A DNA stretch of 64,000 nucleotides from Promethearchaeati archaeon SRVP18_Atabeyarchaeia-1 (GCA_037308085.1 CP147779.1:320001-384000), one strand, 5' to 3'. Counted from the first letter of the stretch, positions 36,389 to 47,434 are shown. Notes: generated by a model from the letters alone, not told the origin. A program made the numbers and translations.

Positions 36389-36607
36389 GTGTAGAAGGTA
36401 CCACGCAGATCTTATAATATCACCGTTTGATTCCGGCCTGAAAATCAACCGCAGCAAACAGCTAGGCAAACAACCGCGCGGACCAAGACTGATTGTAGCT
36501 CGCTATTCGGGAAAGAAAGATTTCGGATCATTGGAGAGCAGTCGAGAAGAACTTTGCGAAGGATAATCTATCCTGCTGTCTTCTTCCAACCCGTAATCAG
36601 GTGGAGG

Positions 36608-36749
36608 TGCGGCGCTCGGGATTTTCACCCTGGAGAGCTGGCATTCCAGCATGGGGATTTGAACCCGAGTATCCACCCTCGACCAGCGTTAAAGCCGAGG
36701 TTTGAGGCTTGGAAGGCCTCAGTCCTAGACCAGACTAGACCAGCGCCGC
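36608..36749 (-). tRNA. tRNA-Gly(UCC) with 2 introns (45/46: 36671-36701; 59/60: 36622-36657)
   Basis: After BHB splicing: GCGGCGC..GAGGC CTTCCAA GCCTC AAAC TCGGG TTCAAAT CCCGA GCGCCGC A. Confidence 0.9.
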
Positions 36750-36884
36750 AAAGCTCACAGTTATTGAACTCTCTTCATGTTTTTGCTTCTTAAGTTTTTC
36801 TCTGATCCCTAGATTGTTCGCCCCTATCCTAAAGTTGTGACGCTCTGGTCGATAGCGAAAAGAAAGAACTAAGAAGTAAGTAGA

Positions 36885-37051
36885 TGGTGCGCCGACCGGG
36901 ACTTTCATTCCGCATGGCAGTCCCCATGCCGGTTTTTGAACCCGGGTTGTGCCGACATGCTGATCTTCCTGGGAGATCAGTGTTATCGGCGTGGCAGGCC
37001 AATGTCTTAGACCATTCCAGATCCCTAATTGGTTGACTGGACCATCGGCGC
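36885..37051 (-). tRNA. tRNA-Gly(GCC) with 3 introns (D-loop: 37015-37034; 44/45: 36949-36984; 59/60: 36902-36934), CCA encoded
   Basis: Spliced product folds as a 78-nt cloverleaf with anticodon loop CTGCCAC. Confidence 0.88.
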
Positions 37052-37145
37052 ACGCACTTCCTATTGGAGGAAGAATTCTAGTTAAGAATTATTTAAATGC
37101 TTTGTATCAAAAGTCTATGTGTATCCGTATCGTCCAAAGTAATAA

Positions 37146-38108
37146 GTGATTATCATGGCTGACGCAACTCCGAGGGAGTTGGCCCAGAAGTTCGGCTACT
37201 CTACTTACCTCGTCGAACGGTATGTCGAATTATTCGGTTTGGATAATACCCTAAGGCTTCTCGAAGCTAATGAGATGGGATTGAAGAGATGCATTAGGAT
37301 AAACACACTTCGCGTGCAAACCGACAATCTGCTACAGAGGTTGGAGCGCAAGGGTTTTAAACTTGGGAGAATAGGATGGGTTCCTTATGGTTTTCGCGTT
37401 CTCGAAGAAAGGTTCCCGCTTGGATCGACTCCTGAATTCATGATGGGGTACTACTACGTCCAAGATGCTGCTTCTATGCTTCCCGCTTATGTCCTGGCGC
37501 CTGGGCCAAATGATTGCGTCGTTGATTTGGGCGCGGCCCCTGGTGGCAAAACCACCCAACTTGCGCAGATCATGGGGAACAGGGGAGTCATCGTTGCAGT
37601 CGATCTCAGCCGTGAGAGGATGAAGTCTCTCCGGTCAAACCTTTCAAGGTGTGGGGTTGCCAACGTCATCGCTTACAGAATGGATGGAAAGGATTTGCCA
37701 AGCCTAGATCTGACAATTAACAAGATTCTTCTTGACGCCCCCTGCTCTTGCGATGGCGTAATCCCCGTCGATCCCTCAAGAAAGAAGAGCAGAACCATCG
37801 AGGACATAAAATTCTGTTCTATGATACAGAGAAAACTTGTCGTTAGTGCCATTAGAAGCCTTCAACCTAAGGGAGAGATGGTTTATTCTACTTGCAGCAC
37901 TGCACCTGAGGAGAACGAGTTTATCATTGCAGACGCAATACGTGAATTTGACGTCGAAGTGATGGATACTGGTCTGGACTTCGGAGATGAAGGACTTCGG
38001 GAGGCGTTTGGAGTGAAACTTCCAGACGAGCTACGACTGGCCAGGCGGTTCTATCCACATAAACATGGAGTTGAAGGTTTTTTCCTCTGTAAACTAAGGA
38101 AGAGGTAA
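37146..38108 (+). CDS. NOL1/NOP2/RsmB-family RNA m5C methyltransferase
   Basis: QDAASM, AAPGGKT, LLDAPCS, YSTCS..PEENE. Confidence 0.93.
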   Translation: MIIMADATPRELAQKFGYSTYLVERYVELFGLDNTLRLLEANEMGLKRCIRINTLRVQTDNLLQRLERKGFKLGRIGWVPYGFRVLEERFPLGSTPEFMMGYYYVQDAASMLPAYVLAPGPNDCVVDLGAAPGGKTTQLAQIMGNRGVIVAVDLSRERMKSLRSNLSRCGVANVIAYRMDGKDLPSLDLTINKILLDAPCSCDGVIPVDPSRKKSRTIEDIKFCSMIQRKLVVSAIRSLQPKGEMVYSTCSTAPEENEFIIADAIREFDVEVMDTGLDFGDEGLREAFGVKLPDELRLARRFYPHKHGVEGFFLCKLRKR

Positions 38109-38117
38109 GGCAATAGA

Positions 38118-38666
38118 ATGTCGGCCATAGAATTCGGATCGATCTCAGTAGATGAGAGAGCAACTATAATGGAGAGCATTGATACCCTCCTGGGCAAAGA
38201 TGTAGCTTCGAACGTCATTGGTCGGCTCGAGATCGTAGTCGCCCGAGGTAAGCGAACCGAGCTCTTCCTTGTGCCCGCGGAAGTTATGAATGTCTTCAAG
38301 AGAACGCGGAACAGACGTAATCCCTACTGCCTGGGCATCTATCTCGGGGATCTCAAGAATGATGATCTATTGCTAAGCATTGAAGGAATCACATTATGTT
38401 CACCTTACACCGAGAAGAAGGTCAAAGTCTCAGACAAAGGCGAACAATCTGTCCTATATGGAAGGGACATCTCGCGTGCCCTAGTTGATGATTACCCCAG
38501 TTCTATCACGAAAGGAGATAGAGTTGTAGTGGTCAACAGGCTTGGGGAGCCATTGGCTCTTGGGAAGGCGCTCATAGATGGCGATAAGTTCAGGAATAGT
38601 GACGTGAGCCTCTGCGTGTTAGAGAATATTCTTGATAGAGGTTGGTATCTCAGAAAAGGCAAGTAA
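38118..38666 (+). CDS. Nip7-like PUA-domain ribosome biogenesis protein
   Basis: EQSVLYGRD...D.GWYLR. Confidence 0.8.
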   Translation: MSAIEFGSISVDERATIMESIDTLLGKDVASNVIGRLEIVVARGKRTELFLVPAEVMNVFKRTRNRRNPYCLGIYLGDLKNDDLLLSIEGITLCSPYTEKKVKVSDKGEQSVLYGRDISRALVDDYPSSITKGDRVVVVNRLGEPLALGKALIDGDKFRNSDVSLCVLENILDRGWYLRKGK

Positions 38667-38723
38667 TGGGGGTCTCAACGAGGCTTCCTCCTTGTTCCCC
38701 AGAAGACTAAGTGAGAGGTTTGC

Positions 38724-39560
38724 GTGACACTACATTTAAATTCAAGTAGGGTGACGAGTGTTCTCCACCTAATCAGCACATGCTTCAAAGACTTGGTGAT
38801 CAGGCTCTTGGTAAAGCAACAGACTGACTCTGGAAGCGAATCTGCAGCAGAGCGGAACGACGCCATAAAGGTAGGCGACTTTTTGCTTGTCGATTACATT
38901 GGGAGAGTCAAGGACACTGGAAACCTCTTCGACTTGACTGTTGAAGAAGTTGCTAAGAAAGAGAAGGTATACCGCGAGGACGAAGCTTACGGACCTAGGC
39001 TCATAGTAATCGGCGAGGGGCTAATGCTCAAAGGCTTTGACGACGCGGTAACTTCGATGAAAGTCGGTGAAAGCAAGACGATCGAGTTACCACCCGAAAA
39101 GGCATTCGGTCTAAGAGATTCGAGCAAGGTAAAGGTTTACCCAGTTTCGGCTTTCAAAAAGAGTGACGTCAGACCGTATGTGGGTGCAAGAGTCACAGTC
39201 GAAGGTAAGACGGGATTTGTTCAAAGCGCTGGGGGTGGCAGAGTTAGAGTCGACTTCAATCCCGTACTTGCTGGGAAGACACTTGTATATGAAATCACGG
39301 TCAGGAAGAAGATCCTAGACGAAAATGAGAAGCTTAATGAGCTAATCAAGCGCCGAATCAGAGGCGCTGAGACCTCCAAGTTCCAGATGAATAAGGAAGG
39401 CGAAATCGTTTCAGTTATCATGCCCAAGGAGACATATCTCGTTGATGGAGTTCAACTAGCCAAAACTATGATCGGTAGAGACATATTGAAGAACATTGAA
39501 GGCGTGAATTCGGTCAGATTCATTGAGGTTTTTGACAAGGAGACATTCAAGCTCAAGTAG
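38724..39560 (+). CDS. FKBP-type peptidyl-prolyl isomerase (long archaeal SlyD-like; start likely ~38808)
   Basis: GDF..VDY.GR, PPEKAFG.RD, VDFN..LAGK.L. Confidence 0.9.
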   Translation: MTLHLNSSRVTSVLHLISTCFKDLVIRLLVKQQTDSGSESAAERNDAIKVGDFLLVDYIGRVKDTGNLFDLTVEEVAKKEKVYREDEAYGPRLIVIGEGLMLKGFDDAVTSMKVGESKTIELPPEKAFGLRDSSKVKVYPVSAFKKSDVRPYVGARVTVEGKTGFVQSAGGGRVRVDFNPVLAGKTLVYEITVRKKILDENEKLNELIKRRIRGAETSKFQMNKEGEIVSVIMPKETYLVDGVQLAKTMIGRDILKNIEGVNSVRFIEVFDKETFKLK

Positions 39561-40002
39561 CTGTAACTCTTCTCAGTTTACATAGGGTGAGTTGCTCATT
39601 ATTCTCACACTTACCTGACAGCCTCTCAACAACCTCTTCGATCCTACATTTGTCGCCCTCATGGAGCCCGAGCGGGTTGCAGTCTTTTGCCTTGTCGCAT
39701 TCAAGGTGAGCGCATTTCTTCGGCTTGTAGGTTATTGAGGAGCCAGGAAAACATGACCTCGAATCCAGTAGAGCCAAGATCGGCGCTTCCTTCACCTCGA
39801 CCAGCGTAACTCCTCCTTCATGAAGGTCACATTGATGAACAATGCCCCTCGACTTTGTCACTTCGTAGACTCTGCCCGGTTCGAGTTTCTGGCATACCTT
39901 GATGAGTTTGCACTCCATGCAGTTTTCGACAACCCCACAGTGCAAGAAGATCGATCCGGTCTTAGCTTGTTTTGTTCCTACCAATGTCAATATTGTGGAC
40001 AT
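39553..40002 (-). CDS. UPF0179 family protein
   Basis: TLVG..QAK.G..F...G...C.EC.L...C..LE.GR.Y, C..HE.GV..VEV. Confidence 0.8.
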   Translation of the reverse strand: MSTILTLVGTKQAKTGSIFLHCGVVENCMECKLIKVCQKLEPGRVYEVTKSRGIVHQCDLHEGGVTLVEVKEAPILALLDSRSCFPGSSITYKPKKCAHLECDKAKDCNPLGLHEGDKCRIEEVVERLSGKCENNEQLTLCKLRRVTAT

Positions 40003-40086
40003 CTGGGGATCGTCTCCAAACTAGATTCTTCTGTTCGACGCCAATCGCGGAGAAACAGTTGCAGGTTCGGGCTCATTGCCCATCTT

Positions 40087-41139
40087 TCAGATCACGCCAG
40101 TGTGCTCTGCAAGTCTCCTGGCCGCCTCTTTGCTCAACCCCTTTTCGCCTAGGATTGTGTATCGCTCAGGTCTTGTCGTGTGAGCTATGTGCAGAGCCTC
40201 GATTACTACTTCGTCGTCGATTCCGAGTTCAGCGGCGGTTGTTGGCGCTCCTATGGTTTTGAGTGCCTGTCTTATCTTCATCCAGTCTCCGTCATGTAAG
40301 TGCTCCATCATAATCGTCCCGACACCGCATTGCGCGCCGTGGAGCGCCGGCTTCGGTGCTATTCGATCCAGTGCATGGCTAAACATGTGTTCCGACCCGC
40401 TAGCGGGTCTACTGCTGCCAGCTATGCACATCGATATTCCGCTTGAGATCAATGCCTCTAAGAGTAGCCTGAGAGCTGATTCAGTCCTCCCCTTGATCAA
40501 AAGAGTGTTTCTCATGACGACCGCGGCGCTTAGTTTTGCGATTGAAGCGGCATACTCCCCATAGTATTCGTTATGAAGCTTGTAGGAGAGCTTCCAGTCT
40601 TTGACAGCAGTCCAGTTGGCAATCGCGTCTCCACATCCAGCAACCAGTAGCTCGTCAGGGGCATGCATTATCACGTCGGTGTCTGCGATCACCGCCATCG
40701 GCGCTTGCGCTTTCACGGAATGAGGCTCGTCGATTCCTCTGACTGATGCTTGAGGCGATGCAATGCCGTCATGAGATGCGGTGGTCGGGATACTCACGAA
40801 CGGTATGTGCTCATTGAATGAAGACAGCTTAGCTATGTCTATGCTTCTTCCTCCGCCTACACCGAGAGCTACCGTTGCCCCCAATTCACGAATCTTCGTC
40901 TGAGCCTTGTCCACATTAGCGAGATCAGCCGCCTCAATTATGAAGACACTTACCTCATAGCCTTCATCATTAAGGGAATCTCCAACACTTCCTCCAGCGA
41001 CTTTCACGGTCGTCTTGTCAGCCACCAACAACGCCGGACCACTCAAGCCAAGCTCTTTGCAGAGCTTTCCCGCTGAAACCAGTACATTCTGGCCAATCAC
41101 TATGTGTCTCGGCAATTGTATTTGGTGAAAAGGAAGCAT
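40087..41139 (-). CDS. egsA: sn-glycerol-1-phosphate dehydrogenase
   Basis: GGGRSIDIAK, PTTASHDG, SRPASGSEH.FSH, HG.QCG. Confidence 0.95.
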   Translation of the reverse strand: MLPFHQIQLPRHIVIGQNVLVSAGKLCKELGLSGPALLVADKTTVKVAGGSVGDSLNDEGYEVSVFIIEAADLANVDKAQTKIRELGATVALGVGGGRSIDIAKLSSFNEHIPFVSIPTTASHDGIASPQASVRGIDEPHSVKAQAPMAVIADTDVIMHAPDELLVAGCGDAIANWTAVKDWKLSYKLHNEYYGEYAASIAKLSAAVVMRNTLLIKGRTESALRLLLEALISSGISMCIAGSSRPASGSEHMFSHALDRIAPKPALHGAQCGVGTIMMEHLHDGDWMKIRQALKTIGAPTTAAELGIDDEVVIEALHIAHTTRPERYTILGEKGLSKEAARRLAEHTGVI

Positions 41140-41396
41140 TCTCTGCCTTATCCTCCCTTACGGCGCCGACCTTGAAACTAAGATATGGTATTAGGCGTTG
41201 ATCCATCTATTAAGTAGTTCTATTTGACATCCTGTGCCACCATTCAACGACCGAATCACGCGACGAATTCGGTGCGAGAGAAAGCGAACTTCACTTCCTC
41301 TGCACGAAATACTTAAATATCGGTTATCTTTCATCTCAAAACATCTTCTGTATATTCTGCGTACTTCTACTTCACAAACTTTTCTCTCGTTTTGGA

Positions 41397-42089
41397 GTGT
41401 GTCAGGTGTTGACGTGGAGGAACACTAGGGACAACATACCAGATAACACGTTGAAAGGAACCACAACTGTTGCCCTAACATGCAAGGACGGCGTTGTTCT
41501 CGCAACCGACAGAAGGGCAACCATGGGATACTATGTTGCTTCCAAAACCGCTAGGAAACTCTTCAGAATAGATGAGCACCTCGCTGCCACCATCGCCGGG
41601 TCGGTTGCTGACGCGCAGAGGGTTATGGACTCTTTGCAGGCAGAGACCAATATCTTCAAAGTCAGAGTGGGTGTTCCTATGCGGGTCAAAGCGGCCGCCA
41701 ATCTTCTATCATCTATTCTTTTTGAGGCAAGACTCTTTCCGTATTTGATGGAGGCTGTCGTTGGAGGAATTGATGAAACTGGGCCTCAGCTGTATGCACT
41801 CGATCCCGTAGGCAGCTTGACTACCGAGAAATTCGTTGCAACCGGCAGTGGGGGTCCAATAGCCTATGGATTGCTGGAGGATTCGTATTCTGAAGATCTC
41901 ACCGTGAAAGATGGGATACCGTTAGTCATCAGGGCCATAAGATCGTCGATGGAGAGAGATGCTGCTTCGGGAAATGGATTCGACGTAGCGTACATCACGA
42001 AGTCAACTTATCATGAACTCTCCGAGAGCGAGATCCGGAAAGTCTCTGAAGAGCTCAATGCAAAAAAGAAGAAGGCTCACTCATCCTAG
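41397..42089 (+). CDS. psmB: Proteasome beta subunit
   Basis: KG/TTTV propeptide cleavage site, GSVADAQ, ATGSG, RDAASG. Confidence 0.95.
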   Translation: MCQVLTWRNTRDNIPDNTLKGTTTVALTCKDGVVLATDRRATMGYYVASKTARKLFRIDEHLAATIAGSVADAQRVMDSLQAETNIFKVRVGVPMRVKAAANLLSSILFEARLFPYLMEAVVGGIDETGPQLYALDPVGSLTTEKFVATGSGGPIAYGLLEDSYSEDLTVKDGIPLVIRAIRSSMERDAASGNGFDVAYITKSTYHELSESEIRKVSEELNAKKKKAHSS

Positions 42090-42152
42090 GGTTTTTTTCG
42101 AAGATGAGTAGTCTAAGCAGAGAACCACGTACTAGGTCGTCAGAAGGAATGA

Positions 42153-44063
42153 ATGATGCAAACAGATGATGCGTTAAATGACATTAGGCAAACGATAGTC
42201 CAAGGACTACCAACGTCGTCTATGGTCACCAGTGTCGAATTTGAAGGACCAGAGATCGCTGTGTACTCCAAGAACCCGAAAGTCCTGCTTGAGGACGGTG
42301 GATTCGTCAAAGAGCTTGCAAAGAAGCTGAGGAAAAGAATAGTTCTGCGTTTCGATCCCAATGTTCGCACGAAGAAAGAGGATTCAGAGAAGAAGATCAG
42401 AGAGATTGTTCCAACTGAGGCGGAGATAACCAAGATATATTTTGACGAGAATGTCGGAGAAGTGGTAATAGAAGCGAAGAAGCCCGGACTTGTCATCGGT
42501 CGAAACGGCAACACGCTGGGAGAGATAACGAGGCTAACTTACTGGAGACCCTCAGTAGTTAGAACTCCACCTCTTGAATCGAGAACCGTGATGCAGATCT
42601 CGAATATCATGCAGAAGGAGAGCGAAAAACGAAAACAGATATTGAGAGAGGTCGGACAGAGGATCTACCGAATACCCGTCTTCAAGAACGACTGGATACG
42701 AATAATAGCGCTAGGTGGATTCAAAGAAGTGGGGAGAACCGCTATTCTTGTTCAGACGCAGGAGAGCTCCGTGCTGGTTGATTGTGGGGTGAACGTGGGA
42801 AGTTCAGAAAACGCGTTCCCAAAGTTATCCGTAAACGAGTTTAATGTAAACGAACTTGACGCCGTCATAATAACTCACGCTCATATCGATCACTCAGGTT
42901 ACCTGCCTTTCCTGTACAAGTATGGGTACAGGGGACCTGTCTACTGCACGAAAGCCACCAAGAATCTAATGACACTTCTTCAACTGGACTACTTGGATGT
43001 CGCAGAAAAAGAAGGGAAACTCCTGCCCTACAGTCCAAAGGATGTAAAGGAGACCGTCTTGCACACCATTACGCTGGATTACGGGGAAGTAACCGATATT
43101 TCGCCGGACATAAGACTCACGCTTCACAATGCGGGACATATTCTTGGTAGCGCCATGGCCCATCTCCATATAGGAGATGGCTTGTATAACATGGCATACA
43201 CGGGCGACTTCAAGTTCGCCAGAACACGATTGCTTGAACCAGCTAACGTCAACTTCCCGAGACTCGAGACTCTAATCATGGAATCCACTTACGGTGGACA
43301 GAACGATATAATGCCGCCAAGAAACAGGACGGAGGAACAACTCGCAAGGATCATCAGAGAGACTATTGGCAGACGCGGAAGAGTATTGCTTCCTGTGCTA
43401 GCAGTAGGGAGGGCACAGGAACTCATGATCGTCTTGGAAGAACTAATCCGTAGAAGGATCATAGATGAGGTCCCGATATACGTTGATGGAATGACCTCAG
43501 AAGCTACGGCTATACACACAACCCACCCAGAGCTATTAGCCCAAGATCTGAGAGAAAGGATTTTTCACCAGGGCCGCAACCCGTTTCTGGCAGAGTACTT
43601 TGTCAAGGTTGAAAGCGGCGTCGCCAGGCCCGAGATAGCTACAGGAGAACCATGCATCATAATAGCAGCATCGGGCATGTTGACTGGGGGTCCAAGTGTG
43701 GAGTACTTCAGGCTAATGGCAAGCGATGAGAAGAACTGTATGATATTCGTGAGTTACCAAGTTGAAGGAACTCTGGGCCGGAGAGTTCAGAAAGGATGGC
43801 ATGAGATTCCTCTTCCACTCAGGGATGGAAGAACTGAAGTAGTCAAGGTCAACATGAGGGTTGAGACAGTCGAGGGTTTCTCGGGGCACTCAGATCGCAA
43901 GCAGCTTCTTGCCTATGTCCGTCAGGTAACACCAAGACCTGAGAGGATAATCCTATGCCACGGAGAGAGCAGCAAATGCTCAAACTTGGCTTCGGCAATA
44001 CATAATCAGTCGAGAATAGAAACCAAGGTTCCTCAGAACCTTGAGGCAATACGACTAAGATAG
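42153..44063 (+). CDS. fttA: aCPSF1/FttA KH-beta-CASP ribonuclease
   Basis: EFEGP, KH domains, THAHIDH, AGHILG, FSGHSD. Confidence 0.95.
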   Translation: MMQTDDALNDIRQTIVQGLPTSSMVTSVEFEGPEIAVYSKNPKVLLEDGGFVKELAKKLRKRIVLRFDPNVRTKKEDSEKKIREIVPTEAEITKIYFDENVGEVVIEAKKPGLVIGRNGNTLGEITRLTYWRPSVVRTPPLESRTVMQISNIMQKESEKRKQILREVGQRIYRIPVFKNDWIRIIALGGFKEVGRTAILVQTQESSVLVDCGVNVGSSENAFPKLSVNEFNVNELDAVIITHAHIDHSGYLPFLYKYGYRGPVYCTKATKNLMTLLQLDYLDVAEKEGKLLPYSPKDVKETVLHTITLDYGEVTDISPDIRLTLHNAGHILGSAMAHLHIGDGLYNMAYTGDFKFARTRLLEPANVNFPRLETLIMESTYGGQNDIMPPRNRTEEQLARIIRETIGRRGRVLLPVLAVGRAQELMIVLEELIRRRIIDEVPIYVDGMTSEATAIHTTHPELLAQDLRERIFHQGRNPFLAEYFVKVESGVARPEIATGEPCIIIAASGMLTGGPSVEYFRLMASDEKNCMIFVSYQVEGTLGRRVQKGWHEIPLPLRDGRTEVVKVNMRVETVEGFSGHSDRKQLLAYVRQVTPRPERIILCHGESSKCSNLASAIHNQSRIETKVPQNLEAIRLR

Positions 44064-44087
44064 GAAGCCAGTCAAACCCGAAATTCG

Positions 44088-44510
44088 TTAGGGTTGCGAT
44101 GTACTCTTTTTATAGATTTTGACGAAAGGCGGTGTTACCACAATATAGTCTTGCCCCAGCTGTGCAATATCGCCACCGATAGTTCTACATACACCCCTCA
44201 GCTGGTCGACAACTCTTCTAAGTTCCCGATTCTGCCCGTACTGCATTCTACCGATATACGCAATCACTATATTGCCCCTCTCCAGCTCGCCCGAAACCTG
44301 CTGGATATTCGACAGGCTTTCAAGATCGACTGACTTGATGTAAATCACATCGGATTCATCTTGATTCACTAGGTCCTTACCCGTCTCGTCTTCTTCGAGC
44401 ACACCAACCTTCTTCTTCAACTCCTCGAGGTCGGTCAACTCCGAGTCTGCCGTGCTCTTCTCACCGTTCTTTTCTTCTCTTCTGCCTCTTAGAAAACGAG
44501 GTAAGGGCAC
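44088..44510 (-). CDS. sepF: SepF (DUF552)-like protein
   Basis: GNIVI...LRRVVDQL....GGDIAQLG...IVVTP. Confidence 0.8.
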   Translation of the reverse strand: MPLPRFLRGRREEKNGEKSTADSELTDLEELKKKVGVLEEDETGKDLVNQDESDVIYIKSVDLESLSNIQQVSGELERGNIVIAYIGRMQYGQNRELRRVVDQLRGVCRTIGGDIAQLGQDYIVVTPPFVKIYKKSTSQP

Positions 44511-44591
44511 TAGTAGCCTAACCCCCACGTTCCACTGTGTTTGACCTATGGTCATGCAGCTATTATAACCTTTTCATAAGCAGGCAGCAGG

Positions 44592-45107
44592 TCACGAATT
44601 CTGCGAGACACGATTCTCCAGACTCTTTGAGAAGTCCCAGATGCTATCCCCTACATAATGCACGTTGATGACAACCTTGCCCTGGCTCATCTCCTCCATG
44701 GTCTTTGCATCAACCAGGCTCACGCCTATGCAGATCGGCTTCAGGTTCTTCTCATCAGATACAATGATTACTTGTTTCGACCTTATCGCCGGATCTATGC
44801 CTCGAATGCCACCCCTAAAAACATCGGCCCCATTGCAGATATGAGGCACAGCCTTCATGTCTACGGTTACTCGAGGCAATTGAAGAGCGGATCTTAATAC
44901 GGACACTAGAAGTGGAAACATCTTTCCGTCCTCGCCCACATAGAAAGTGGGTTGACCATCCACTGCGAAGACTTCTCCCTTCTTCGATGAGAAGCCCTCG
45001 ACACGGCAACCGCGTGGAAGCAGGGAATCGCCCAGACCTATTGCACTATCAATTCTGGTTCGCAGATCCTTGATGTCATCTTTCCTGAGAAATCTGCCCA
45101 AGAGCAA
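44592..45107 (-). CDS. PUA-domain RNA-binding protein (MCT-1/Tma20-like)
   Basis: VDMKAVPHICNGADV..GI...G..L......GK...HYVGD.IW. Confidence 0.85.
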   Translation of the reverse strand: MLLGRFLRKDDIKDLRTRIDSAIGLGDSLLPRGCRVEGFSSKKGEVFAVDGQPTFYVGEDGKMFPLLVSVLRSALQLPRVTVDMKAVPHICNGADVFRGGIRGIDPAIRSKQVIIVSDEKNLKPICIGVSLVDAKTMEEMSQGKVVINVHYVGDSIWDFSKSLENRVSQNS

Positions 45108-45387
45108 TCAACTCCATCCCTCTCAAGGGAATCGCCGAAGAACACGGGGAGAGACGAGGAAATAAAGTTTCCATAACACCCTCGCTTGACTTCGGAGACC
45201 CGCATTCTCAGAGAATCGAGCCCTAAAAAGACGATCGTTGGGTGTGCTTCAGCTTGCATCGTTGCTCGAGAGTGCTCACCTCATCGCTCCGCGAATTCGC
45301 AGGATTTCAAAAGGTTTAAATAGTTTGCACATAGCTACTCATGTTGCAACCATAGTTAGTTCCAGCAAAGGTGCGTGCTTAGAGAAT

Positions 45388-45618
45388 ATGAATCAACAGA
45401 GACCACCTGACCTTCTCCAGAGATCACTCGACTCCAATGTCCTAGTTAAGCTGAAGGGTGGCCGTGAAATCCGGGGAAAGCTTCGCGGTTTTGACATGCA
45501 TATGAATCTTGTTTTGGAAGAAGCCGAAGAGATAGTGGATGACAACAACTCAAAGAAGCTCGGAGCGATCGTTGTGAGGGGAGATAACGTGATCATGATA
45601 AGCCCGCCTCCAAGGTGA
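45388..45618 (+). CDS. Sm/Lsm protein (SmAP1)
   Basis: [24 protein letters not shown]...RGDNV. Confidence 0.95.
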
Positions 45619-45624
45619 CTTTGA

Positions 45625-45810
45625 ATGACAAAAGGTACACCAAGCTTCGGCAAGATGAATCAGAAGGAGCACATAAGATGCCGAAGGTGCGGCCGTAGGG
45701 CCTACCATGTTCGCAAGAAGCGATGTGCTGCATGCGGATACGGCAGATCTAGCAAACTCAGAAGGTACACCTGGCAGACAAAAACCTTGAACAAAGAGAG
45801 ACTCAGATGA
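45625..45810 (+). CDS. rpl37e: Ribosomal protein L37e
   Basis: [16 protein letters not shown]...C..CGYG. Confidence 0.96.
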
Positions 45811-45922
45811 GATCGTGTACGGTTTAGCAGTATTTATTAGGTGTACAAGATCACAAAGCCAGTGCACACCTCAGAAGAACATTGGACTCTGACGATTGGA
45901 ACCAGAGCAGCAGAATTCTTGT

Positions 45923-46061
45923 GGGCCGGTAGTTTAGTTTGGAAGAATGCCACGTTGGCATCGTGGAGATCCTCCTTCCGAAAAACAGAAGGAGACCACA
46001 AGTCGCGAGTTCAAATCCCGCTTGCAGTCGCTGGCGAGGGAAATTCTCGCCCGGTCCACCA
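45923..46061 (+). tRNA. tRNA-Ala(GGC) with 2 introns (45/46: 45969-46001; 59/60: 46016-46044), CCA encoded
   Basis: GGGCCGG...CCACG TTGGCAT CGTGG AG|GTC GCGAG TTCAAA|T CTCGC CCGGTCC ACCA. Confidence 0.9.
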
Positions 46062-46153
46062 CTATTATTCTGTGCAGTATGACCGCATTCTAAGCTAGTT
46101 TAAGGCTTCACCGAAAACGAGAAGCTGGCAAAATGCCTTTCTCAGGCATTGTA

Positions 46154-46350
46154 TGGTGGGCGAGGCCGGATTTGAACCGGCGATTCGGCGCTAAAGGTAT
46201 ACCCGTTTAGCTCCACCGCCGTGTCTACCCAGAGAGTATTTAGATGGCAGTCACGTTGCTGTCTCAGTGCCCAGTTACTCTCCTCAGGGCGGTATCATGA
46301 CCATCCAGAGGTCATCACAGCAGGTGAAGCCTAATCTAGACCACCCGCCC
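46154..46350 (-). tRNA. tRNA-Val(GAC) with 3 introns (D-loop: 46303-46333; 34/35: 46225-46284; 46/47: 46184-46212), CCA encoded
   Basis: Spliced: GGGCGGG TG GTCTAGAT|GGTCATGAT A CCGCC CTG|ACAC GGCGG TGG|TC GCCGG TTCAAAT CCGGC CTCGCCC ACCA. Confidence 0.88.
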
Positions 46351-46541
46351 TTCACGAAAACCCCATAGTCATATCCATATATATTGTTTTTTATCTCCGG
46401 ATTTACTTTGCCCCTTATACCTCTTAGAATGGAGTACACCAATTCAACTAGCTTAATGATGAATAATGGAAGCCAGATAGGGGAATGGAGAGGAACCCTT
46501 ATTTAGGTGACTTAAGAGATTGCTTTCGTCGTTAGAAGAGT

Positions 46542-47027
46542 ATGGGGCCTATTCTATTGTCGATTGTCTTCACTTGGAGGAAAAGAGCTAACATTGGACT
46601 TGCGCTCATGCTCATCGGATTGACAGGTCTTGTGCAGAGTTACGTCGTTTTTAATGCCCAGACGACACTGGGCATAACGGGCATCTATCTTCTGGCCCTT
46701 GTCCCGATTGGGGTTACTCTAGCGCTAAGTGGGGTTGAGCTGTCAGTGGCCGAGACCATCTACAGATGGTCCTATTCTGGCAAAAGGAAGACTTCCAAAT
46801 GGAAGGAGCCTCAGAGGGGTGGTCTCCGCCTCCTCGCGAATAGGATAGAGACGGCTTCCGTATTATCCGCCATACTGGTTCTGACGTTATCATTCTTGTG
46901 TTATTTCTCTGTTCTAGTTGCGTGCGTGGGAACTAGCATCCCCCTTTTCACTAGGTTTGTGCTAGCTGAAAGCGCGTCTATGATCGCAGCTGTCTTCCTA
47001 GGGATTCTTGGACCCAAAATAATCTAA
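46542..47027 (+). CDS. Hypothetical membrane protein (~4 TM)
   Basis: Four hydrophobic stretches. Confidence 0.65.
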   Translation: MGPILLSIVFTWRKRANIGLALMLIGLTGLVQSYVVFNAQTTLGITGIYLLALVPIGVTLALSGVELSVAETIYRWSYSGKRKTSKWKEPQRGGLRLLANRIETASVLSAILVLTLSFLCYFSVLVACVGTSIPLFTRFVLAESASMIAAVFLGILGPKII

Positions 47028-47104
47028 ATGAAGCACTACGATTTTGGGTTCAATTCCGAAGAAAAACTTAAAAGATGAGCCCTCCGAATATAGGAGTTGC
47101 AGAT

Positions 47105-47276
47105 GCCGCCGTAGCTTAGCCCGGGAGAAATCTTCAGATTCAACCGACAGCGCCGGTCAAGTGGAGAGGATGTCACATCCTCACGTTGGGCGAAACTGAA
47201 GATCCGGTTGTCGCAGGAGGATACTCAGAGAGGGTCGTCTGGTATCCTGCGAGTTCAAATCCCGCCGGCGGCACCA
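47105..47276 (+). tRNA. tRNA-Phe(GAA) with 3 introns (22/23: 47128-47148; 30/31: 47157-47194; 53/54: 47218-47253), CCA encoded
   Basis: Spliced: GCCGCCG TA GCTTAGCCCGGGAG|AGC G CCGG|A CTGAAGA TCCGG TTGTC GCAGG|TTCAAAT CCCGC CGGCGGC ACCA (one A-C mismatch in the T stem). Confidence 0.85.
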
Positions 47277-47434
47277 ATTTATGTGCGATATTTTTAAGAG
47301 TCAGTTCTGTGAACGTTGAATTCCCGCAGAGACACGCGATTGGCGGCGTTGGATCAGTTTTGTCAGACTAATTATGGATTGAGCAGAATGCCTATGGCTT
47401 TTCACGCGGTGCCGGACAGGGTGAAAATGGCAAG

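Follow-up and report, generated by a model that had tools for sequence, protein, structure and literature searches.

A 64,000-nucleotide (nt) window of the genome of Atabeyarchaeia-1 (Candidatus Atabeyarchaeum deiterrae), an Asgard archaeon from wetland soil with a genome of 2.81 Mb (Valentin-Alvarado et al. 2024, PMC11291895), was analysed for interrupted transfer RNA (tRNA) genes. Between positions 36608 and 47276 the window carries five such genes, coding for tRNA-Gly(UCC), tRNA-Gly(GCC), tRNA-Ala(GGC), tRNA-Val(GAC) and tRNA-Phe(GAA), which are split by 13 introns of 20-60 nt (2 + 3 + 2 + 3 + 3 in this order). None of the 13 lies at the canonical position 37/38, and four of the five genes have an encoded CCA. 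The window comprises bases 320001-384000 of the genome (2,808,651 base pairs (bp); GC 0.495). Coordinates are window positions unless they are called genome positions, which equal window position plus 320000.

ARAGORN predicts no tRNA gene in the window, nor does Rfam at its gathering score; below that threshold, Rfam recovers only Ala, at 45930-46021 and interrupted by 34 extra nt, and Gly(UCC), at 36645-36749 and interrupted by 32 extra nt. The introns were located in three ways: by a cloverleaf dynamic programme that is blind to the splicing motif, by enumeration of deletions compatible with a bulge-helix-bulge (BHB) motif and checking of the products with ARAGORN, and by spliced alignment to orthologues. 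All three give the same five genes and the same 13 introns. The initial annotation had described five tRNA genes with two or three introns each, 13 in total and none at 37/38, and every position that it gave was recovered by the three methods. ARAGORN folds each spliced form into a canonical cloverleaf, identified as Gly(tcc), Gly(gcc), Ala(ggc), Val(gac) or Phe(gaa), and recognises no tRNA in the five unspliced loci. ARAGORN is too permissive as a filter, and many wrong intron combinations were also scored as tRNA, because their acceptor and T arms are real. We therefore judged the solutions by the strength of their motifs, by orthologues and by identity elements. One solution ranked first in the motif-free search and was rejected: a Lys-like reading of the Val locus with two introns, ruled out by the orthologue in Atabeyarchaeia-2, which has an uninterrupted D arm and the same anticodon stem. 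The published tRNAscan-SE and R2DT results at the same coordinates agree with ours on 12 of the 13 introns. The published list contains no further tRNA in the window, and a T-loop pattern scan gave no additional candidate outside the coding regions.

Uninterrupted copies of the five mature sequences are absent from the 2.81-Mb genome, where the only matches are their own exon pieces and short T-arm matches to other tRNAs. To judge from the genome sequence, the five loci are the cell's only genes for tRNA-Gly(UCC), tRNA-Gly(GCC), tRNA-Ala(GGC), tRNA-Val(GAC) and tRNA-Phe(GAA). The Atabeyarchaeia-1 assembly has been validated by long reads (PMC11291895). Contigs from four DNA metagenome runs, compared over positions 36500-47400, confirm the intron-containing DNA, though only at the level of contigs; the best-matching run may be the source sample. 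Among such contigs the Gly(GCC) and Ala loci recur with 0-2 differences, and no contig joins across any intron. The sole contig joint near the tRNAs, from 46064 to 46154, falls between the Ala and Val genes, has one side of 20 nt and is likely to come from another organism.

The junctions share the BHB motif. On its 5' strand, the outer helix leads into four central bases; next come a bulge, which is cut after its second base, and the inner helix. On its 3' strand, the inner helix is followed by four central bases, a bulge and the outer helix. The central helix pairs exon bases -6 to -3 of the 5' site with intron bases -6 to -3 of the 3' site. All four central pairs are present at 10 of the 13 junctions and three of the four at the other three, with two 3-nt bulges on opposite strands, in keeping with the strict or relaxed BHB junctions, at introns of 20-60 nt, that had been described from the sequence before. 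Arbitrary start and end pairs in the same precursors or in shuffled ones give a complete central helix in 2.0-2.1 per cent of cases. When a flanking helix of at least 2 bp is also required, nine of the 13 junctions qualify, against 0.5-0.6 per cent by chance. In the whole genome, 50 of 63 introns have the complete central helix. For 10 introns the cloverleaf fixes the junction up to sliding that leaves the product unchanged, and the motif is found at only one of the equivalent positions. The genes and introns are listed in table 1.

Table 1. The five tRNA genes between positions 36608 and 47276 and their 13 introns. Fractions are paired positions in the four-base central helix; published numbers are those of the tRNA list in PMC11291895.
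Feature	Coordinates	Strand	Intron length (nt)	Position in tRNA	Published number	Remarks
tRNA-Gly(UCC) gene	36608..36749	-			39	precursor 142 nt, spliced 75 nt; without encoded CCA
Gly(UCC) intron 1	36671..36701	-	31	45/46		central helix 3/4 (one U.U); inner helix 8 bp
Gly(UCC) intron 2	36622..36657	-	36	59/60		strict BHB, TTCA/TGAA; bulges AA|T; T stem is outer helix
tRNA-Gly(GCC) gene	36885..37051	-			38	encoded CCA; 164 nt to discriminator, spliced 75 nt
Gly(GCC) intron 1	37015..37034	-	20	D-loop 17/17a		CCAG/CTGG 4/4
Gly(GCC) intron 2	36949..36984	-	36	44/45		GCCG/CGGC 4/4
Gly(GCC) intron 3	36902..36934	-	33	59/60		TTCA/TGAA 4/4; T stem is outer helix
tRNA-Ala(GGC) gene	45923..46061	+			6	G3:U70, A73, encoded CCA; spliced 74 nt
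Ala(GGC) intron 1	45969..46001	+	33	45/46		GTGG/CCAC 4/4; bulges AG|A, AA|G
Ala(GGC) intron 2	46016..46044	+	29	59/60		relaxed, 3/4; T stem is outer helix
tRNA-Val(GAC) gene	46154..46350	-			37 (as 'His GTG possible pseudo')	A73, encoded CCA; spliced 76 nt
Val(GAC) intron 1	46308..46336	-	29	D-loop 14/15		GGTC/GACC 4/4; inner helix 4 bp
Val(GAC) intron 2	46225..46284	-	60	34/35, within anticodon		GCCC/GGGT 4/4; inner helix 8 bp
Val(GAC) intron 3	46184..46212	-	29	46/47		CGGT/GCCG 4/4; inner helix 6 bp; published coordinates identical
tRNA-Phe(GAA) gene	47105..47276	+			7	encoded CCA; spliced 74 nt
Phe(GAA) intron 1	47128..47148	+	21	D arm 22/23		relaxed, 3/4 (4/4 in Atabeyarchaeia-2)
Phe(GAA) intron 2	47157..47194	+	38	30/31, anticodon stem		CGCC/GGCG 4/4
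Phe(GAA) intron 3	47218..47253	+	36	53/54		CGCA/TGCG 4/4; inner helix 7 bp

The five loci were compared with their orthologues in LC30, a Promethearchaeati metagenome-assembled genome (MAG) of the same genus, and in Atabeyarchaeia-2, of a sister genus in the same family; H2M.186, a more distant MAG, was used for Ala only. Relative to Atabeyarchaeia-2 and LC30, exon identity is 0.88-1.00 and intron identity 0.27-0.74. The junction geometry recurs at the same positions in the relatives, and the intron interiors differ. All three genomes retain the 8-bp inner helix of Gly(UCC) intron 1, with changes on both sides. Among the base pairs that touch the Gly(UCC) introns, five have changed in both partners; most of the five belong to this helix, one position of which reads C-G, G-C and A-U across the three genomes. 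For the Val 34/35 intron, an unconstrained RNAalifold prediction gives four pairs, three unpaired bases and then eight pairs. The geometry of the Ala 45/46 intron is identical in four genomes and leads to a 5-nt variable loop.

Two of the introns are not shared by all relatives. Atabeyarchaeia-1 and LC30 have the Ala 59/60 intron, which Atabeyarchaeia-2 and H2M.186 lack. Atabeyarchaeia-1 and LC30 also share the Val D-loop intron; it is missing in Atabeyarchaeia-2, where the D arm leads without interruption into the same anticodon stem. Because these compact Ala and Val orthologues are seen directly, the extra stretches are insertions, an argument that is independent of the motif.

Several points weigh against the reading of all 13 stretches as BHB introns with the boundaries of table 1. 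All 13 junctions are predictions from sequence, and three of the introns form only three central pairs out of four. The flanking helices are weak at Gly(GCC) intron 1 and Phe intron 1, and the latter, in the D arm, has almost none. At the Gly(GCC) D-loop intron, a second register with four central pairs lies 3 nt away, at 37018-37037; the two registers are equally good and give different D-loops. The register 37015-37034 was chosen because it is the one used in Atabeyarchaeia-2 and LC30 and because the D-loop then matches that of Gly(UCC). The BHB rule helped to choose the junctions of the Gly(GCC) D-loop and Phe D-arm introns and the 3' end of the Ala 45/46 intron, and these three are therefore not independent tests of the motif; the same three may be off by 1-3 nt. 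As the family is represented by only three genomes, few covariations could be counted.

Some of the insertions, chiefly the relaxed ones in the D arms of Phe and Gly(GCC), might be retained in the mature molecules as tRNA expansions or might mark decaying genes. In favour of this reading, the Phe insertion forms three central pairs out of four and has no contiguous flanking helix; neither D-arm insertion was called as an intron by tRNAscan-SE in the published table, whose only such call in the Gly(GCC) gene is intron 3 (59/60), and a recent preprint gives canonical motifs at only 33 per cent of D-arm insertions (Goswami et al. 2026, 10.64898/2026.10.13.758758). Against it, the Phe and Gly(GCC) genes are the only ones of their kind in the genome. 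Across three genomes the Phe insertion varies in sequence but stays 21 nt long and at the same place, and in Atabeyarchaeia-2 its central helix is complete. By general tRNA structure, an insert of 20 nt in the D arm would disrupt the contact between the D-loop and the T-loop. We consider retention or decay extremely unlikely and treat both D-arm insertions as introns.

The initial annotation had further postulated a splicing endonuclease of broad specificity and had proposed that the EndA architecture be classified. The genome codes for two EndA paralogues, with PF01974 matches at genome positions C1:202619-202873 and C1:624258-624518, each of which also has the N-terminal domain PF02778; the catalytic His is found in only one of them. 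The 209-amino-acid (aa) paralogue aligns over residues 34-208 to the catalytic subunit of Aeropyrum pernix (PDB 3P1Z/3AJV; E = 5e-46) and keeps the catalytic His (GIDH), the residue changed in the mutant chain of 3AJV. The alignment is ungapped through the Crenarchaea-specific loop, where K64 and K66 correspond to K44 and R46 of the A. pernix enzyme. It is this loop that enables the enzyme to cleave relaxed introns and introns of the D-loop, and K44 contacts the RNA (Hirata et al., PMC3241643). The 241-aa paralogue, in which a Thr aligns with the catalytic His of M. jannaschii EndA, matches the crenarchaeal beta chains only weakly (E about 0.1); it is presumably the structural beta partner. 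It differs from the A. pernix system in that it is longer than crenarchaeal beta chains and keeps both EndA domains. An RtcB ligase is also encoded (E = 2e-175). Non-canonical introns are cut only by (alpha-beta)2 and epsilon2 enzymes, and (alpha-beta)2 enzymes that lack the loop are restricted (PMC5829648). The predicted two-subunit EndA, with its catalytic His and with K64 and K66 in the specific loop, speaks, at the level of sequence, for the broad specificity that had been postulated.

The gene structures, the junction motif and the fact that relatives conserve it are direct observations, as are the enzyme genes. We infer from them that cutting and joining take place in the cell, and at exactly these bases. 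Each gene would be transcribed as a precursor of 136-194 nt with two or three BHB introns. At each intron, the four exon bases just 5' of the 5' splice site would pair with four bases near the 3' end of the intron, and this pairing would leave on each strand a 3-nt bulge, to be cut after its second base. An (alpha-beta)2 EndA, with the Crenarchaeota-type lysine loop in its catalytic subunit, would cut the bulges at any place in the tRNA where the motif is formed, and RtcB would then join the exons. We regard this model as a whole, in which the cell's only genes for five tRNAs carry BHB introns that are removed by (alpha-beta)2 EndA before RtcB joins the exons, as highly probable.

The published table (PMC11291895, Supp. 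Data 4) lists the same loci for Ala(GGC), Phe(GAA), Gly(GCC) and Gly(UCC) and counts nine of their 10 introns. It differs from our results in the Val(GAC) gene, given as a His pseudogene, in two introns instead of three for Gly(GCC), in the end of the Ala 45/46 intron, placed one base earlier, in the lack of a true His gene and in a Thr(GGT) gene given as 'Pro TGG'.

One of these differences concerns row #37, 'His GTG, possible pseudo', which in our assignment is tRNA-Val(GAC). The His reading comes from tRNAscan-SE, with a score of 51.7 bits, and its introns leave a micro-exon of 3 nt, GTG. It requires this micro-exon to lie inside what is otherwise a single 60-nt intron with a strict motif, and it leaves the D-loop insertion in place. 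The identity elements of tRNA-His are G-1 and C73; the locus has A at -1 and A73. Positions 46154-46350 thus offer neither a G-1:C73 pair nor a GUG in a 7-nt loop, and GTG occurs only inside the 60-nt intron. The Val reading, by comparison, gives three strict motifs, each with four central pairs, and a canonical cloverleaf. The orthologues in Atabeyarchaeia-2 and LC30 have the same anticodon arm, and the former was published as Val GAC; the published Atabeyarchaeia-1 list offers no other Val(GAC). A separate His(GUG) gene lies on the minus strand at genome position C1:464249-464421 (464421-464249 in its direction of reading). It shows G-1 and C73, is interrupted by three introns with the motif at their ends (D arm, canonical 37/38 and 59/60; the D-arm junction is approximate) and is absent from the published list. 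This gene lies just upstream of the Ala(UGC) gene, adjoining it as the His gene of Atabeyarchaeia-2 does. A tRNA-His(GTG) pseudogene at 46154-46350 is on this evidence hardly credible, and we retain tRNA-Val(GAC).

The remaining corrections are likewise small. In Gly(GCC), three introns are required for a product of 75 nt; the published count is two, which leaves out the D-loop intron, and the published row for Atabeyarchaeia-2 gives three. The Ala 45/46 intron is 33 nt long and ends at 46001, against 46000 by tRNAscan-SE in the published table, which gives a variable loop of five instead of six nt. Published row #30, 'Pro TGG' (genome C1:808245-808089, minus strand, 40.2 bits), splices to a canonical Thr(GGT) with U73 and three introns; its isotype was probably mis-called through a shifted intron boundary beside the anticodon. 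For the published 'Gly ACC' (genome C1:2474261-2474396, plus strand), which has two annotated introns one base apart, no convincing cloverleaf could be derived. The published Atabeyarchaeia-1 list is without Asp, Ile, iMet, Leu(GAG), Ser(CGA) and Thr(CGU). The corrections to the published tRNA annotation appear to be new; the main text of the 2026 preprint does not mention the reassignment of His to Val (10.64898/2026.10.13.758758).

Active intron spread had also been suggested for these genes. Of this suggestion turnover is supported and copying is not. A close relative lacks the Ala 59/60 and Val D-loop introns, so that gain or loss is recent; this is a point in favour of copy-type spread between tRNA genes. 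The 13 introns are no more alike than shuffled sequences: in an all-versus-all comparison, the best local score is 10, against a mean shuffle maximum of 9.2 and values of up to 11, and a search for second copies of any of the 13 in the genome found none. The preprint places 1.5 per cent of focal Asgard introns in families that cross tRNA types, compared with 28 per cent in Thermoproteales (10.64898/2026.10.13.758758). Spread by copying is therefore very unlikely here. Two further ideas of the initial annotation, that introns spill over into mRNAs and that those in the 3' half shield tRNA genes from integrases, are speculative.

Introns may instead arise in place, by small local duplications or insertions that complete a BHB without a donor copy, although we hold this to be a rather unlikely origin. 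In the LC30 version of the Ala 59/60 intron, the first 7 nt repeat the downstream exon perfectly and the end repeats the T-stem strand, so that it looks like a tandem duplication of the T arm. Genome-wide, intron ends match their own flanks at 5.89 of 18 positions, against 5.24 in controls with reassigned hosts, and the ends of T-loop introns at 7.8 against 6.9; neither difference is significant. No intron matches its own tRNA better than shuffled sequences do at p < 0.01. An origin by local tandem duplication is not mentioned in the main text of the 2026 preprint (10.64898/2026.10.13.758758).

Two short complementarities were observed among the introns. The Phe D-arm intron (47128-47148) contains ATCTTCAG, an 8-nt complement of the gene's own anticodon loop CTGAAGAT (47195-47210); the match is probably due to chance, because it is reduced to 5 nt in Atabeyarchaeia-2 and absent in LC30. 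The Gly genes lie in tandem, and their T-loop introns could pair with each other along 12 nt, one of the pairs being G.U (36646-36657 with 36921-36932), again probably by chance, as the pairing is not kept in Atabeyarchaeia-2 or LC30.

TATA-like A-rich boxes can be seen by eye 25-50 nt upstream of four of the genes, and T-runs, also by eye, 3' of Gly(GCC), Val and Phe. The sequence GAAAAACTTAA occurs upstream of both Gly(UCC) and Phe, at 36790-36803 and 47064-47077, approximately 35-50 nt before the mature 5' end, and is likely to be a B recognition element (BRE)/TATA element. A gene for ribosomal protein L37e, a small zinc-ribbon protein (45626-45811, plus strand), ends approximately 110 nt upstream of tRNA-Ala. 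As no clear TATA-like box lies within 80 nt of the Ala gene, it may be co-transcribed with L37e or use a box near 45830. The two tRNA-Gly genes are adjoined, on the opposite strand, by a gene for an RsmB/NOL1-type 5-methylcytosine (m5C) RNA methyltransferase (37146-38108, plus strand). The FttA/aCPSF1 protein encoded at 42153-44063 is 87 per cent identical to that of Atabeyarchaeia-2 and 90 per cent identical to that of LC30.

Interrupted tRNA genes of this kind have been described before. Multi-intron tRNAs, attributed at the outset to Thermoproteales and some Asgard genomes, are published for this very genome, where introns occur in 92-95 per cent of tRNA genes, more than half contain several and the positions are often non-canonical (PMC11291895). 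The main finding is already known, because the genes and most of the introns are listed there and because the Phe gene is the subject of Fig. 2a of the 2026 preprint. This figure shows the Phe(GAA) gene described here, with the 21-nt D-arm insertion missed by tRNAscan-SE; the preprint also reports a motif-free census at panel scale, with BHB enrichment, repeated gains and no copying between tRNAs (Goswami et al. 2026, 10.64898/2026.10.13.758758). According to the same preprint, 44 of 60 Asgard genomes have two-subunit EndA, and its presence does not account for the lineages in which introns accumulate. The tRNA genes of Thermoproteales (Sugahara 2008; Fujishima 2010) are similar in having up to three BHB introns per gene, non-canonical positions and an (alpha-beta)2 EndA with the specific loop. 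They differ in that their introns form sequence families common to several tRNA types, which points to transposition, whereas the 13 introns studied here do not; the intron load per gene is also higher in Atabeyarchaeia-1. The catalytic subunit resembles that of A. pernix in keeping the catalytic His and the loop residues K44/R46 as K64/K66.

Heavily interrupted tRNA genes defeat standard tRNA finders, a general point that is in print for this genome. The errors in the published tRNA set of the type genome stem from introns in or beside the anticodon, and they would carry over into any analyses of codon usage, decoding or intron gain built on the published list. The interrupted tRNA genes found in Asgard archaea bear on the origin and persistence of introns in the closest prokaryotic relatives of eukaryotes.

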